Below are positions 15,001 through 21,000 of a stretch of 26,917 bases of DNA, in pieces. The stretch spans positions 1 through 26,917 of the forward strand of contig JBLGBN010000012.1 in the NCBI GenBank assembly GCA_047617745.1, written 5' to 3'. Numbering within the stretch: the first letter of the stretch is position 1; each line of letters starts with the position of its first letter. This stretch comes from Candidatus Nanohaloarchaea archaeon. Lineage in GTDB: Archaea > Nanohalarchaeota > Nanosalinia > Nanosalinales > Nanosalinaceae. The position numbers were made by a program.

Positions 15001-18000
15001 AGTTCATATTCGCCACTATCTACATTATAGCCTATTTCTATATTTTCATCTTCAAAATCTCTCTCGACACCTTCGAAAGTTTTTCTCACTTTCGGTGTTA
15101 GATAACGCTCTTTTAATGTCATTATGTAACTATCAAGTGACAAATATTTTACATGGTTTGTGGTTTATTCGTCATCCTGGAAATTATTTGAGTTCAACTC
15201 AGTTCAAATTCGGGCCCGTGCCAGATCACTCAGTATATTGGATTATATCTTTGATATCCCCGATAGGTGCATCTGTCCTGAAACCGGTAGGTGAGAAATG
15301 TGTTCTTGATACAGGATAACCTTTGTCCCGGATTGATTCGATTACTTTTTCGCGTTTCGGCACCTGGATCCCCATTATTGAGCAGAGTTCGTGGAGGTCG
15401 TAGAACGGAGTCATTATCTCGGCTTCGCGGTGTATTTTCTCCAGCATCTCGTAACTGTCCCCCCATTCCTCTGGCATCTCTTCCAGCATGTCCTCGGTAA
15501 ATCTCTGATCGGAGAGTTTTCCTGTCCAGAGCGGCCCGGCGATCTCCAGTTCTGTGTTTCCGCAGTTTCCGCATTCTTCTGCTCTCTCCAGTTTTCTCCA
15601 TCTACATTCAGGGCAGAAAGATAGGTATCCGATATTGTCTAGAGCCCGATTTGTCCGTTTCTTGGATTCTGTTACTCTCCCCATTACTCGGGAGTAGTGT
15701 CTTTCGTGCCAGCAGATTTTCGGATCGAAGCACATGTCGAAACGGGCGTAGTTCTGGAATACTTCTTTGATGTAGATTCTCAAACCTGTCTCGTGCATGA
15801 AGCTGTTCTTTAGCGGTGTTGAGTTATACCTCCTCATGCATGCTTTCCTGTAGCTTCCGGATGTTACCGAGTTATCGGTCGCGCTTAAACCGACGAAACT
15901 GGTATGGTTGGACGCTCTAACGGCTGAGTCTAAAAACTCTAGAAAAGAGCCAAAGGGATCGATGTCGATGAAGTGGAAGCGGTTTCTTTTCTCAGACATA
16001 AGAATATTGGCGTTCTTGCTGAATACTTCTGCTTCAATATTATTGGCGTCCATTCCGTCTTCGATACTTTTGATAGCTTCGGGATTGGTGTCATTCAAAA
16101 ATAGTTTATCTGTGAAGTCTGCGTATCTAAATCCGCGGATTCCTGAGGCCGACATCGCATCTAGAGCTGTGAACTCTTCTATATCCACTCTTTCTTTGAA
16201 GACTCTTCCCGCTACTTCGGATAGATCTCTATTATGTAGCATCTCCTCGTTGTAAAAAACCTCTGAGTCCTTGGTGGGTTCGTCTTCCGGTGCGAAGATT
16301 TTGAAGCCTCGTTCTTTCATATTATAATATGGGCTGAGATGAAGCTTTTATTTCAGGCCCGGATCAGTAAAAACTTTTTAAAGGAGATTCTGTCTTCCGG
16401 GCTCATAGGGTTTATAAGTTTTCTATCCAGAGGCTCTTATGTTGGTGTTCTAGGGATGCAAAACGTTGTACAGAATGTCAGAAAGGCCGAGCAAGATGCC
16501 GATTCTATAATTGAAGAGGCTGAAGAAAAGAAAAATGAGATAATCGAAGAAGCCGAGGAGAAAGCTTCTGAAATAGTTAAAGAGGCTGGACAGGATGCAG
16601 AGAAAGAGAAACTGAAGAGAATGGACAGGTTCAAAGACAAGGTTAACGAAGAGAAGGAAGAAATAATTGAAAACGGGAGGCAGGAAGCGGACGAACTTAG
16701 GGAAAAGGCCTCCAAGAATTTTGAAGACGCAGAAAACTTTCTGAAAGAAAGATTTGAGAAAGAATTCCAGTAGAAGGTGATCAAAAATAAAACCTGCAAA
16801 GATGACCAAGCTATCGATCACAGGACTGAAGAGAGACCTTAGACCGGTCATCGAAGAACTTCACAATCTCGAACTCCTTGATATCGAAGATTACTCTGGA
16901 GAACTTGATACCGGAGAAACATTTGAGGAGGGTGAGGAAATCTCACAGCTACTTGTTGATCTCCGATCTCTTCTATCAAAGCTACCGAAAACAGAGGATT
17001 CGGAAGCTTCAGGTTTAGGATTCGAAGAGGTACACGAAAAAATTCCGGAGCTCAACGAAACCGTAAATGGTATTGAGGATCAGATAGCTGAACTGGAATC
17101 AGAAATCAATGAAATCAAAACGCAGAGAAACTTTTTCAAGAAAGTTTCAAACCTTGACCTGGAATACAGAGACCTCCAGGGAACAAGAGAGCTGGACTGT
17201 TTTGTCGGAAAGATTGATACAGAGCAGTTTGAAACGGAAGCTCCTAACACCAAATACGAATTGCTGGAGGGCAGAGGAGCAGATGTAGTTTTCTACCCTG
17301 AAGGAGAGGGATTTGAACAGGTAATTGAAAAAACTTCTAAGGATATTTTTGACTGCCCTCAAACTGATCTTGAAGGTCATGTATCCGATATCGAAGAAAA
17401 GCTTGCAGATAGTCTTGAAGAATTAAGACAGGAAAGAAACGCAAAACGGGAGGAGCTTCAACAACTTTCAGAGGGATGGAGAACAGACCTTGAGGAGACT
17501 GAGGAGTTCATGACGGAGAAAGTTGAGAAAGCTGAAGCTCCTATAAAATTTGCTACAACCGATTCGGCATTCTTTGCCAAAGGATGGGTTCCGACTGAGA
17601 AGTTTGGAAAGGTTGAGGAGAGACTTGCCCAGGTAACAGAGGGCAGGGTTCATGTCCAGGAGGAAGACGGCAATAACCCTCCTGTAAAGCACGACAACGT
17701 TGGACCTGTAAAGAACTTCGAGGATCTCACAGATCTCGTATCTGTACCTAAATACAACGAACTTGATCCTTCATTCATGCTACTACTAACGTTTCCACTA
17801 TTCTTCGGATTTATGATCGGGGATGCAGGATACGGATTAACATCACTGATTGTTTTCTACGCCGGTATGAAGATGTTTCCCGGGGCAACAGATATTTTCA
17901 AGTCACTGATGTACGCATCAGTCGCCACAATCATATTCGGACTGGCGTTCGGAGACGCCTTCGGGTATGTCCTGTTCGGTCATCACTCCGATCTTGCAGC

Positions 18001-21000
18001 AGTAACAGGTATACATCTGTTCGAGCAGATACCGCTTCTATGGCACAGAGCAGAACACTTGAACCAGGTATTCCAGATCTCCGCGCTTATCGGTTTAGTG
18101 CACGTTAACATAGGATACCTGCTCGGATTTTACAACGAGCATGTCAACCACGGGTTCAAGGAAGCGTTCCTTGAGAAAGGAAGCTGGCTGATGCTTGAAG
18201 TAGGCGCAGCACTCTGGTACTTCGGTGGTATGACAGCAGGAGCGCCAGTAATAGCAATCTCAGTAGCACTGCTCTACCTTGGAGAAGGAGTGGAAGGGGT
18301 TGTGGAGATTCCTTCACTGCTTTCAAATGTGTTATCTTATCTCAGAATATTTGGTGTGTCGGTCGCAGCAGTTTCACTGGCGGCGGTTGTCAATGGACTG
18401 GCTGATCCGCTTTTCCAGTCAGGATCGATGATCGGCATCGCGCTGGGAGTAGTAATGCTGATATTCGGACACACTTTCAACACGTTCATCAAAATCATGG
18501 AAGGCTTCCTCCAGGGCATCCGACTTCACTATGTCGAGATGTTCTCAAAGTTTTACGAAGGAGGAGGCAGAAAATATGTTCCTTTCGGATCAAGTTAAAT
18601 CAATATTTCAGGTGAAAACCACTATGCTCAAAATCACAAAAACACAAGGTGAAATCCAAAAATGGCAGTAGGACAGTTTGCAGCAATCGGTGCAGGACTG
18701 GCTGTAGGTATTGCAGCACTTGCAACAGGATGGGCCCAGGCAAAGATCGGATCCGCTGGAGTTGGCGCTCTGGCAGAAGACGACAGCCTGTTCGGACAGG
18801 TTCTTATCCTGACAGTCATCCCGGAGACTATGGTTATCTTCGGACTCGTAGTCGCACTGGTTGCCACAGGCTTCATTGGAGCATAAAAACTCAAAGAGGG
18901 CCGCAAGGCTCTCCCAAACCTTTCATTTATTCAAATACAACAAAACGTGAGGAAAAAAGATACTATGGGACTTGAAGAAATCAAATCGGAAATTCTGCAG
19001 GAAGCAGAGCAAAAATCAGACGAAATAGTCAAAGAAGCTGAAGAAGAAAGGGATAGAATTATCGAAGAAGCTGAAGAAGAAGCTGAACAGATCAAAGAGG
19101 AAATGGAGGAAGAACTTGAAGAAGAGAAGGAAAACTACAGGAAGAAAGCTCTATCCAGCGCCCGGATGAAGGCGAAAGAGGAGAAGATGAGAGCAAAGCA
19201 AGATGAGATTGAAGAAGTATTCAAGGAGTTTAGACACTATCTCGACAAACTGACTGAAAGCGAAAAAGAAAAGTTCGCTGAATCCTGTCTTGACAAAGTT
19301 GACTTCGAAGTCGCAAAAGTTGAGGGAAGCTCGGAGTTCAGCGGAGCCGTAGATGTTGATTTTGAGGAGAAAGAAAATATTGAAGGAATCCGGGTTATTT
19401 CAGAAGACGGAAGCCGGATGCAGAGCTTTACCTTCGACAAAATCCTAAAGCAGATGAAAGAAGAGCACAGAAAGGAAGTCGCGGACATACTTTTCTGAGG
19501 TGTATAGAATGATATCACGAGACTACCCCTACATGTACGCAAGAGTAAGCGCCAAGAAGGCCAAACTGCTCGAGGAATCAGATTACCAGCAGCTAATCAA
19601 GATGGAGCCGAACGAGATAGCGAGAAAGCTCCAGGAAGGAGGCTACAAGACAGATATCGACGAACTTGGTGTGGAATATGACGGGGTAGAGCTCGTGGAA
19701 CTCGCTCTCATGAGGAATGTTTCAAGGACGATGGCAGACATGATAGATATATCGCCAGATTCTCTTGACCCGGTTATCAATTCCTTCCTGAGACGGTACG
19801 ACATTCTTAGCCTCAAGAGACTTCTGAGATGGAAGAAAGGAGGAGAGAAAGGAGAGGTTAAAGACCTGCTTGTACCTGTAGGACAGTACACGGCTGAAGA
19901 TCTCCAAGAACTCTCGGAGAAAAGCTTTGAGGAAATATGTCGATCTATAAAATTCAAGGATTCAGATGTAGACTATCAGTCCTTTATAGAGAACACTGAT
20001 GACATAAGAGAAGTCGAGAGAAATCTTGACCGCGCTTACTATAAGGAAATGAGGCAGACAGCTGATTCACTTGGCAACATGTGGTTCAAGAAGTTCATCA
20101 GAAAAGAAGTTGAGTACGAAGATCTGAAAATAGCTTTACGGCTGAAGAAGTATGGACTGGAGATAGAGGAAATAGAGGAATGGCTTGTAGGCGAGAAAAT
20201 AACGAAATGCATCGAGAAAGTACTGGAATCGGAGAATCTAGATGAAGCAATTAAAGAAGTCGAGGAATGTGAGGGATTAGAGTTCCAGAATGGAAAGAAT
20301 ATCGAAGATGTGGAACATACACTGGAAATTGAGAGACTGAAATCCGCCTTCAGAACGCTTCACACAGAGCCGCTCGGACTAACATCAGTATTCGGATATA
20401 TTGTTGCAAAAATGGTTGAGGTCAAGAACCTCAGAATGCTTATCAGAGCTAAAGAGACAAATATCCAAAACCAGGAAACAATCAGGAGAAACCTGGTAAT
20501 AGCATAGGTGGAGAAAAAATGGAAAATGAAGAAGACAAGAAATCGATCGCAGTAATAGGGGAAAGAGAGTTCACGGTAGGATTCGAACTGGCAGGAGTTC
20601 AGAAGACATACGGAAAGGAAAACTACCGGGAGCAGATCCAGGAACTGATCGAAAGAGAGGACTTGGGAATTATCGTCGCGGAAAAATCCGATATTGATGA
20701 ACTCCCGGAAAGAATTAGAAGAAAGGTTAACGAATCCGTTGACCCTGTTGTAGTACCGCTTTCAGAGAAGGCAGAGGACTCACAGCTACAGGACAAAATC
20801 AGAAAGGTAATCGGAGTGGATTTATCTTAAATCAATACTAAAGGTGAAATTCAAAATGAAAACTCAAAACGCGCTATTCGATTTCAGCTCAGAAGGTGAT
20901 GCTGAATGACACAGACACAAATTCAGGAAACAGAAAAGGACGGCACAATCTACAAGGTCGCAGGACCTGTAGTGATCGCCGAAAACATGGACCCTCAGAT

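Follow-up and report, generated by a model that had tools for sequence, protein, structure and literature searches.

Comparison of nanohaloarchaeal genomes indicated that AUA, AUU, AUC and CUG codons placed behind a ribosome-binding site are most likely the translation starts of about one gene in 50 of Candidatus Nanohaloarchaea archaeon (assembly GCA_047617745.1), including those coding for an ATP synthase subunit and for the sole methionyl-tRNA synthetase (MetRS). Initiation at AUH (AUA, AUU or AUC) and CUG codons led by a Shine-Dalgarno (SD) sequence appears well supported by these comparisons. The strongest case, which the survey's finding did not bring out, is metG, the MetRS gene, whose non-canonical start would extend across the phylum and include GUC, UUC and UUU, and the ATP synthase case lies in the window, that is, the whole stretch of 26,917 nucleotides of contig JBLGBN010000012.1 that was analyzed. 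In this genome (G000), such starts were assigned to approximately 12-14 of 719 genes (about 1.5-2%), corresponding to 7-10% of the SD-led genes, and therefore they are not routine. The survey's finding that they are routine and that start selection is relaxed lineage-wide was too strong, and they are better described as gene-specific.

The atpI start in the ATP synthase operon

The atpI gene had been called from an in-frame ATG, whose presence five codons downstream of the proposed start was confirmed (Table 1). The SD contains a TGA (16778-16780) that closes the atpI reading frame on its upstream side. The gene upstream is presumably that of A-type ATP synthase subunit H, and the two genes downstream are taken to be atpK, coding for the c-ring subunit, and atpE, all three assigned from position.

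Table 1. Features of the ATP synthase operon in the window
Feature	Position	Strand	Remarks
Upstream operon gene	16456..16773	+	TAG stop (16771-16773) out of frame with atpI; no Pfam match
Shine-Dalgarno GGTGATC	16776..16782	+	Complementary to the 16S 3′ end GAUCACC
Proposed atpI start ATA	16787..16789	+	6 nt after GGTGA (16776-16780); ancestral Ile2 codon of M-I-x-P-x-x-M
atpI, A/V-type ATP synthase subunit I (PF01496)	16787..18598	+	603 codons counted from ATA
In-frame ATG, called start of atpI	16802..16804	+	Five codons downstream of ATA; internal conserved Met
atpK (presumed)	18662..18886	+	SD and ATG; internal control
atpE (presumed)	18965..19498	+	Internal control

Among 30 atpI loci, 14 presented an AUH and lacked any canonical codon between it and the stop upstream, and four presented an AUH for which the GTG within the SD was in frame, while eight had an ATG one codon earlier and four a canonical start at the aligned codon (3 ATG, 1 GTG). 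An AUH at the aligned codon, previously counted in 24 of the 30 loci, is indeed there, but in six of these it directly follows an ATG, so that AUH-only loci amount to 18 of 30. All of them belong to family f1 (18/24, the other 6/24 starting at ATG or GTG) and none to families f3/f4 (0/6), and AUA accounts for 7 of the 18. Within the same operon, atpK and atpE had canonical starts in 30/30 loci (28 ATG and 2 GTG in each case), and the subunit H gene started at ATG, GTG or TTG across loci. In the 18 AUH-only loci, the residues between the AUH and the in-frame AUG were conserved as protein: Pro(-3) was spelled with all four of its codons and Lys/Arg(-4) with four codons, while the codon ahead of the AUH varied freely and the SD spacing was 5, 6 or 7 nt.

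The metG start across Nanohalarchaeota

The metG gene, for which AUU at C10:6964 was verified, was found in single copy, and a search of plasmids for MetRS retrieved nothing. Its first canonical in-frame codon is a Met located after the HLGN motif, a region that aligned with strand 1 and the HIGH region of the solved MetRS 1rqg, and 34 of 57 distinct metG loci had no canonical in-frame codon ahead of strand 1. Of the 54 SD-bearing loci, 48 had an N-U-N codon at a distance of 5-7 nt from the SD, the corresponding counts for adjacent codons being 6, 7 and 2 of 54, and the protein column of this codon varied from -7 to -17 while the SD distance held. Moreover, many loci carried an in-frame stop 0-2 codons ahead of the start site, and a TATA-30-SD layout was observed in 38/54 metG loci versus 3/51, 3/47 and 4/61 SD-led ATG genes, from which the metG mRNA is predicted to begin mostly at the SD.

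The 47 non-canonical nanohaloarchaeal metG starts comprised AUC (18), AUU (19), UUC (5), GUC (3) and UUU (2); the start of locus L392 was ATG, and those of L233 and L369 were more likely ATT than ATA. AUA, which represents 28-37% of Ile codons in f1 genes, did not occur among these starts, and this counts against the explanation favored below. The start was ATG in 9/9 Aenigmarchaeota and canonical in 8/8 Micrarchaeota, and in a quick tree, on which this history is based, canonical nanohaloarchaeal starts appeared at five separate places within the non-canonical clade. Several NCBI records of nanohaloarchaeal MetRS already begin at ATT or ATC (P0063 compared with locus L373; P0038, P0070 and P0101 by their N-termini). 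Among the matches listed for database MetRS homologs, 49 of 120 lacked the HIGH motif and 10 more lacked strand 1.

Other genes and genome-wide tests

All ten codons named in the survey's finding in addition to metG were located at the positions given there and open long frames, although their frequency had been overstated. A GGUGN motif preceded nine of the ten by 5-7 nt, the normal SD distance of ATG starts, the exception being RimK, with GAGUGA 4 nt before AUC; the spacing peak from GGUGN to ATG (6-7 nt) agrees with the 7-8 nt given earlier if counted from GGUG. Six genes (metG, pheA, SAMP, the kinase, the glycosyltransferase and RimK) had no AUG, GUG or UUG ahead of the conserved N-terminus, and AUG was found at the same codon in orthologs of atpI (3/30), pheA, the kinase, E3, RimK and metG. 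For example, pheA had 104 codons without any canonical codon and ATG at the same codon in the relative G002, and the kinase, E3 and RimK had ATG at the same codon in G021. For E2, E3, the kinase, pheA and g52, the relatives compared were G002 and G021, and the E2 start context beyond its own genome is that of G021. SAMP presented AUC without a canonical in-frame codon in 12/21 f1 loci (18/30 in the earlier count), and in G000 this AUC falls within the 3′ end of the overlapping upstream gene, so that the constancy of the codon is not independent evidence.

In the genome-wide comparison of residual ATH codons with internal SD-like sites, an excess was obtained in G000 (p=0.008), and the result was not significant in G002, G021 and G031. 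The frame test, repeated here, was weak (in-frame ATH 13, versus 10 and 3 in the other frames). A tighter comparison with internal SD-like sites, whose filters were chosen only after the first result was known, showed enrichment in three genomes: ATH plus CTG made up 8/16 in G000, versus 75/881 internal sites (p=3e-5), 4/9 in G002 and 6/10 in G021, while in 400 kb of G031 (2/6) it was not significant. From two automated lists of "forced" candidates, 7/38 and about 13/29 rows were retained for G000 by eye, the discarded ones being mostly shadow frames and UTR matches; related loci and genomes across these comparisons are not independent. The earlier estimate that 22 of 84 GUG genes look leaderless held for the share, but the number was about half: of 51 GUG genes in G000, 38 lacked an SD and 11 had a TATA at 28-32 nt (3 at the control position), and ATG genes had it in 129/456 (control 17).

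Translation machinery

No lesion accompanying the odd starts was found in KsgA, aIF1, the initiator tRNA (tRNAi) or 16S rRNA. KsgA loss was rejected as a cause, since the gene was found in 40/41 genomes. aIF1 was found in 36/41, and its loss in G000 was also rejected, since the whole surrounding ribosomal-protein block falls between two contig ends, an assembly gap. The 16S change C1400U occurred in 6/17 genomes, none of the same genus, and was discarded as well; U1404 was present in 17/17 (G000 lacks the 16S body). The tRNAi retains its three G-C pairs, and the tRNA comparison revealed neither an altered initiator tRNA nor an initiator-like tRNA-Ile. A mitochondrial-type recoding of AUA as Met does not apply, as G000, G002 and G021 have a separate tRNA-Ile(UAU) and ATA is commonly used for Ile inside genes. 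In the available part of PMC4705826, aIF1 is reported to reject AUU in vitro (Sulfolobus), and that of PMC6237735 describes R31 of P. abyssi aIF1 as binding the 30S subunit. The matching site was Ser, Thr or Ala in 20 of the 21 f1 genomes listed and Arg in 7/9 outgroup genomes, but this change was rejected as a cause because it does not track the trait.

Preferred and alternative explanations

The explanation that we consider probable is initiation by the normal Met-tRNAi at near-cognate codons positioned by the SD, retained as a class of weak starts. The pairing of GGUGA with the 16S 3′ end would park the 30S subunit with the codon 5-8 nt downstream in the P site, where Met-tRNAi (CAU) would be accepted provided that the central U pairs, mismatches being tolerated at the third position (AUU, AUC, AUA), at the first (CUG) and, rarely, at both (GUC, UUC, UUU). 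The lack of canonical starts, the tracking of the SD and the gene specificity can be read from the alignments; the identity of the tRNA and a low initiation rate are what we infer from them. Some members of this class, used by perhaps 1.5-2% of genes, would be recent and local, such as the pheA CUG, and two would be old and kept: atpI, which in f1 would have lost its ancestral AUG and now start at the former Ile2 codon, and metG, whose non-canonical start would be ancestral to Nanohalarchaeota. In ATP synthases, subunit I is present in one copy and the c subunit in many, and the atpI weak start probably holds down this one-copy membrane subunit, which shares its operon with the many-copy one. 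Since metG returned to AUG or GUG about five times and 6/24 f1 atpI loci start at ATG or GTG, the weak start can be dispensed with, which counts against this explanation, as does the reported rejection of AUU by aIF1, a factor found in 36/41 genomes. With two mismatches, starts at GUC, UUC and UUU should be very weak according to E. coli reporter data, and their occurrence at an essential enzyme also counts against it.

A lineage-wide loss of start-codon proofreading, for instance by a weakened loop 1 of aIF1, would let AUG drift to near-cognates at little cost and with no gene-specific role. This is unlikely: the aIF1 substitution in f1 and the sporadic cases that resemble drift (pheA; different genes in G002 and G021) speak for it, but G024 retains the Arg and yet its atpI is AUH-only, metG starts are non-canonical in f3/f4 genomes that carry the Arg, and R31A has a mild effect (Kd on 30S:mRNA <3 nM). 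Moreover, 340 of 387 ATG-start genes of G002 keep ATG at the aligned codon in G000, and KsgA and the tRNAi G-C pairs are preserved; with AUH-only starts in 18/30 atpI loci versus 0/30 for atpK and atpE, which never switch, and with non-canonical starts phylum-wide in metG, a kept class of weak starts fits better than a general loss of fidelity. It is very unlikely that the sites are not starts at all, with translation beginning instead at the SD's GUG or at a downstream AUG, or entering these genes from the preceding one by readthrough or frameshift. This may hold for single genes such as the zinc finger, E2 and E3, in which, as in four atpI loci, the SD's GUG is in frame, immediately after the upstream stop for E2 and E3; the downstream atpI AUG and the SAMP overlap also agree with it. 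Nevertheless, with a spacing of 5, 6 or 7 nt, the SD's GUG and the upstream gene occur in each of the three frames relative to the site, by which readthrough and frameshift were rejected, E2 in G021 has AUC at 7 nt and no in-frame GUG, metG has its own predicted promoter and nearby upstream stops, and metG and pheA would be left unexplained.

For metG, two further proposals were considered. It is highly improbable that the first codon is decoded by the G34-bearing elongator tRNA that matches it (Ile GAU, Val GAC, Phe GAA), which would make MetRS startable when charged Met-tRNAi is scarce, as a feedback loop. All 47 non-canonical starts end in C or U, with AUA missing in spite of its share of f1 Ile codons and of atpI starts, and the promoter layout peculiar to metG is in line with such a loop; however, the constant central U answers the need of Met-tRNAi and would be superfluous if an elongator tRNA were used, initiator features are missing from tRNA-Ile(GAU), the metG loci are related, and aIF1 acts against the presence of an elongator tRNA in the P site (PMC6237735, available part). 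A broader version, which is unlikely, would make metG a conserved translational control element, in which a leader mRNA of ~12 nt beginning at the SD and N-U-Y starts, including GUC, UUC and UUU, make the production of MetRS depend on how much charged initiator tRNA is available, possibly through initiation with an elongator tRNA; metG genes of unrelated prokaryotes may follow the same logic.

Relation to known systems and significance

An AUU start is known for E. coli pcnB. Similarly, E. coli infC, coding for IF3, starts at AUU and is autoregulated (PMC4705826, available part). The nanohaloarchaeal cases resemble both in having an SD-led AUU start on a translation gene and a weak start kept by selection, and differ in the archaeal machinery, in involving a dozen genes and in the use of AUA, AUC, CUG and probably GUC, UUC and UUU. 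ATG is the start codon of the aIF1 gene in the loci examined; therefore, an IF3-type loop, in which the proofreading factor has its own weak start, was not seen here. Ribosome profiling of Haloferax volcanii likewise points to near-cognate initiation in an archaeon, with near-cognates making up ~30% of the putative alternative sites, which that study set aside (PMC7261190, available part); unlike those extra sites, the codons described here would be the only possible starts of essential genes and are conserved. In the accessible portion of PMC5622118, AUG, GUG and UUG interchange at one codon in prokaryotes, and switches to CUG or AUU number 3 among 61,358 annotated ancestral AUG starts, against which the ~1/50 genes with such starts here can be set only roughly, given annotation bias. 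Our literature search, which covered few subscription papers, found no description of such starts in Nanohaloarchaeota. NCBI translation table 11 has already been applied to several nanohaloarchaeal MetRS, without comment and inconsistently. This table is not known to allow initiation at GUC, UUC or UUU.

According to reviews, archaeal genes start at AUG, GUG or UUG, and aIF1 rejects AUU. Essential genes with no other start, in metG perhaps with two mismatches, would therefore offer a natural test of the SD overriding start-codon proofreading, and the cultured nanohaloarchaeal consortia make a proteomic test feasible. Because they most likely begin at unusual codons, these proteins are often cut short by gene finders, and about half of the MetRS homologs listed for Nanohalarchaeota are shortened in databases and appear catalytically dead.

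Start codon of atpI

The contig belongs to a genome of 834 kb (88.6% complete), which was analysed together with two members of its family f1, G002 (whole) and G021 (1.04 of 1.047 Mb), and 400 kb of G031, from family f3. The gene flagged in the window encodes the A/V-type ATP synthase subunit I (atpI, PF01496), and it is preceded by a Shine-Dalgarno (SD), GGTGATC, matching the 16S 3′ end. The TGA within this SD is in frame with atpI, so that no start is possible upstream of it; an ATA follows GGTGA at 6 nt, and the first ATG comes five codons past this ATA.

Among 30 atpI loci, out of 41 genomes searched, the survey's finding of 24 AUH starts (AUU, AUC or AUA) stood as to the codon, but six of these loci keep an AUG. 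Within f1, an adjacent canonical codon (ATG, GTG or TTG) was absent in 18 of 24 loci; in 14 of these no such codon occurs as far as the upstream stop, and in the other 4 the GTG of the SD is the only one. In these 18 loci the candidate was ATC in 9, ATA in 7 and ATT in 2, at 5 (4 loci), 6 (10) or 7 nt (4) from the SD. All four proline codons occur at Pro(-3) and four codons at Lys/Arg(-4), and the codon preceding AUH varies freely, which, together with the shifting spacing, indicates that the stretch is translated and that AUH is its sole constant candidate. The outgroup families presented ATG ahead of the motif I/M-x-P-x-x-M in 6/6 loci, and the sequence comparison points to f1 having lost the ancestral AUG and turned Ile2 into the start. 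In the same 30 loci, atpK and atpE had canonical starts in 30/30; the first gene of the operon, mixing ATG, GTG and TTG about equally across relatives, is intermediate between atpK/E and atpI.

Features discussed, with positions (genome and contig named where outside the window)
Feature	Position	Observation
SD of atpI	16776-16782	GGTGATC
First operon gene	16456-16773
atpI, locus L031	G015:C1:180277-182036	Split over two frames in that assembly
New start candidate	G000:C2:65405	ATC, matched in G002
New start candidate	G000:C5:4638	ATA, matched in G002
tRNA-Ile (UAU)	G000:C33:3246-3373	Intron-containing; also in G002 and G021
16S, locus L202	G002:C1 near 924200	3′ domain broken shortly ahead of the anti-SD by an insertion, probably an intron
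aIF1, locus L080	G017:C1:780976-781481	Tandem pair, zinc knuckle in one, absent from the other

Start codon of metG

The sole MetRS gene of the genome, metG, whose product has Candidatus Nanohaloarchaea as closest named relatives, reaches its first canonical codon past strand 1 and the HLGN motif. It was compared in 70 loci (30 relatives and the best 40 metagenome hits), 69 anchorable and 57 distinct, and 34 of the distinct loci had no canonical codon ahead of strand 1. Of the 54 loci that have an SD, 48 place an N-U-N codon in frame 5-7 nt past it (ATC 18, ATT 16, TTC 5, GTC 3, ATG 3, TTT 2, ATA 1), compared with 6/54, 7/54 and 2/54 at neighbouring codons; five further loci had ATT or ATG at 8-9 nt. 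Errors in single MAGs are a possible source of the GTC, TTC and TTT codons, against which speaks the TTC found at the same place in f3 relatives. GTC is the only candidate in two loci (L219 and L287, the latter with TTC next) and TTT in another (L237); the TTC of L227 has as sole alternative an ATC at spacing 0, and in the remaining loci with TTC or GTC the GTG of the SD is in frame.

Since a TATA box sits 28-32 nt ahead of the SD in 38/54 loci, versus 6% of SD-led ATG genes, the metG mRNA probably begins at the SD; the box is missing in 5/6 canonical-start loci with an SD. Named outgroups had canonical metG starts, and a quick tree traces the non-canonical state down to the deepest branch of the nanohalarchaea, implying about five reversions to a canonical start. 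Two nearly identical MetRS proteins (L290 and L305) differ in their 5′ regions, with ATG without SD in one and SD plus ATT in the other. A metagenome locus of the distinct set that groups with Aenigmarchaeota (L310) carries an SD with ATA at 5 nt and the SD's GTG in frame, and the habit may accordingly extend outside Nanohalarchaeota. Some NCBI MetRS records already begin at ATT/ATC, and 59 among the 120 homologs listed were truncated in databases.

Other genes and genome-wide frequency

All non-AUG codons named by the survey were present in the sequence. The conserved region lacks a preceding canonical codon in pheA, the glycosyltransferase and SAMP (first canonical codon 104, 38 and 19 codons on, respectively), in the kinase (first ATG inside the P-loop) and in RimK. 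In G002, ATG occupies the same codon in a g52 homolog of 31% identity and in pheA; in G021 it does so in the kinase, PDH E3 and RimK. An in-frame GUG alternative is retained in PDH E2, E3 and the zinc finger, and the E2 of G021 has AUC without it. The AUC start proposed for SAMP was the only candidate in 12/21 f1 loci, though in this genome it falls inside the 3′ end of the gene upstream.

Among the 719 genes for which an ortholog exists, 111 SD sites are followed by an ATG/GTG/TTG start, and inspection by eye left about 12-14 genes, RimK and the zinc finger included, with a credible start at AUH/CUG; the scope is narrower than 'routine', a claim that proved too broad. The first frame test was weak, reaching significance in this genome alone (p=0.008), and a tighter one, with filters set post hoc, gave 8/16 versus 75/881 at internal SD-like sites in this genome, with 4/9 in G002, 6/10 in G021 and 2/6 (not significant) in G031, where ATA was the forced start of one gene among 218. 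Leaderless ATG genes have TATA at 28-32 nt (peak at 30), as do 11/38 SD-less GUG calls, and for several of these calls the orthologs carry ATG or GTG at the equivalent position.

Initiation machinery

KsgA loss increases non-AUG initiation (PMC7897474); KsgA is present in 40/41 genomes. aIF1 was found in 36/41 genomes, its absence here being an assembly gap; the trait does not track the change of its loop-1 Arg, altered in 20/21 f1 genomes (on this residue, PMC6237735). The tRNAi and anti-SD were ordinary, and the tRNAs called in this genome, G002 and G021 included only one CAU tRNA of elongator type. Among 17 relatives (L188-L205), the 16S residues seen at the P-site wobble position were C1400U, which was patchy (6 f1 genomes), and U1404, which occurred in 17/17, in G021 with A1497. 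None of KsgA, aIF1, tRNAi, anti-SD or C1400U presented a lesion accounting for the odd starts.

Interpretation

In earlier work, infC starts at AUU and aIF1 is reported to reject AUU (PMC4705826), and near-cognate putative start sites occur in H. volcanii (PMC7261190; on start-codon switches, see also PMC5622118); our literature search found no description of such starts for Nanohaloarchaeota. SD-led non-canonical initiation as such is very probably real, and the constant central U points to Met-tRNAi as reader. At metG, the most interesting part of the finding, the near lack of AUA leaves room for a bolder but unlikely reading, a control element tied to charged initiator tRNA, possibly with an elongator-tRNA start. 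That weak starts are kept is suggested by the difference between atpI and atpK/E and by how old the metG start is.
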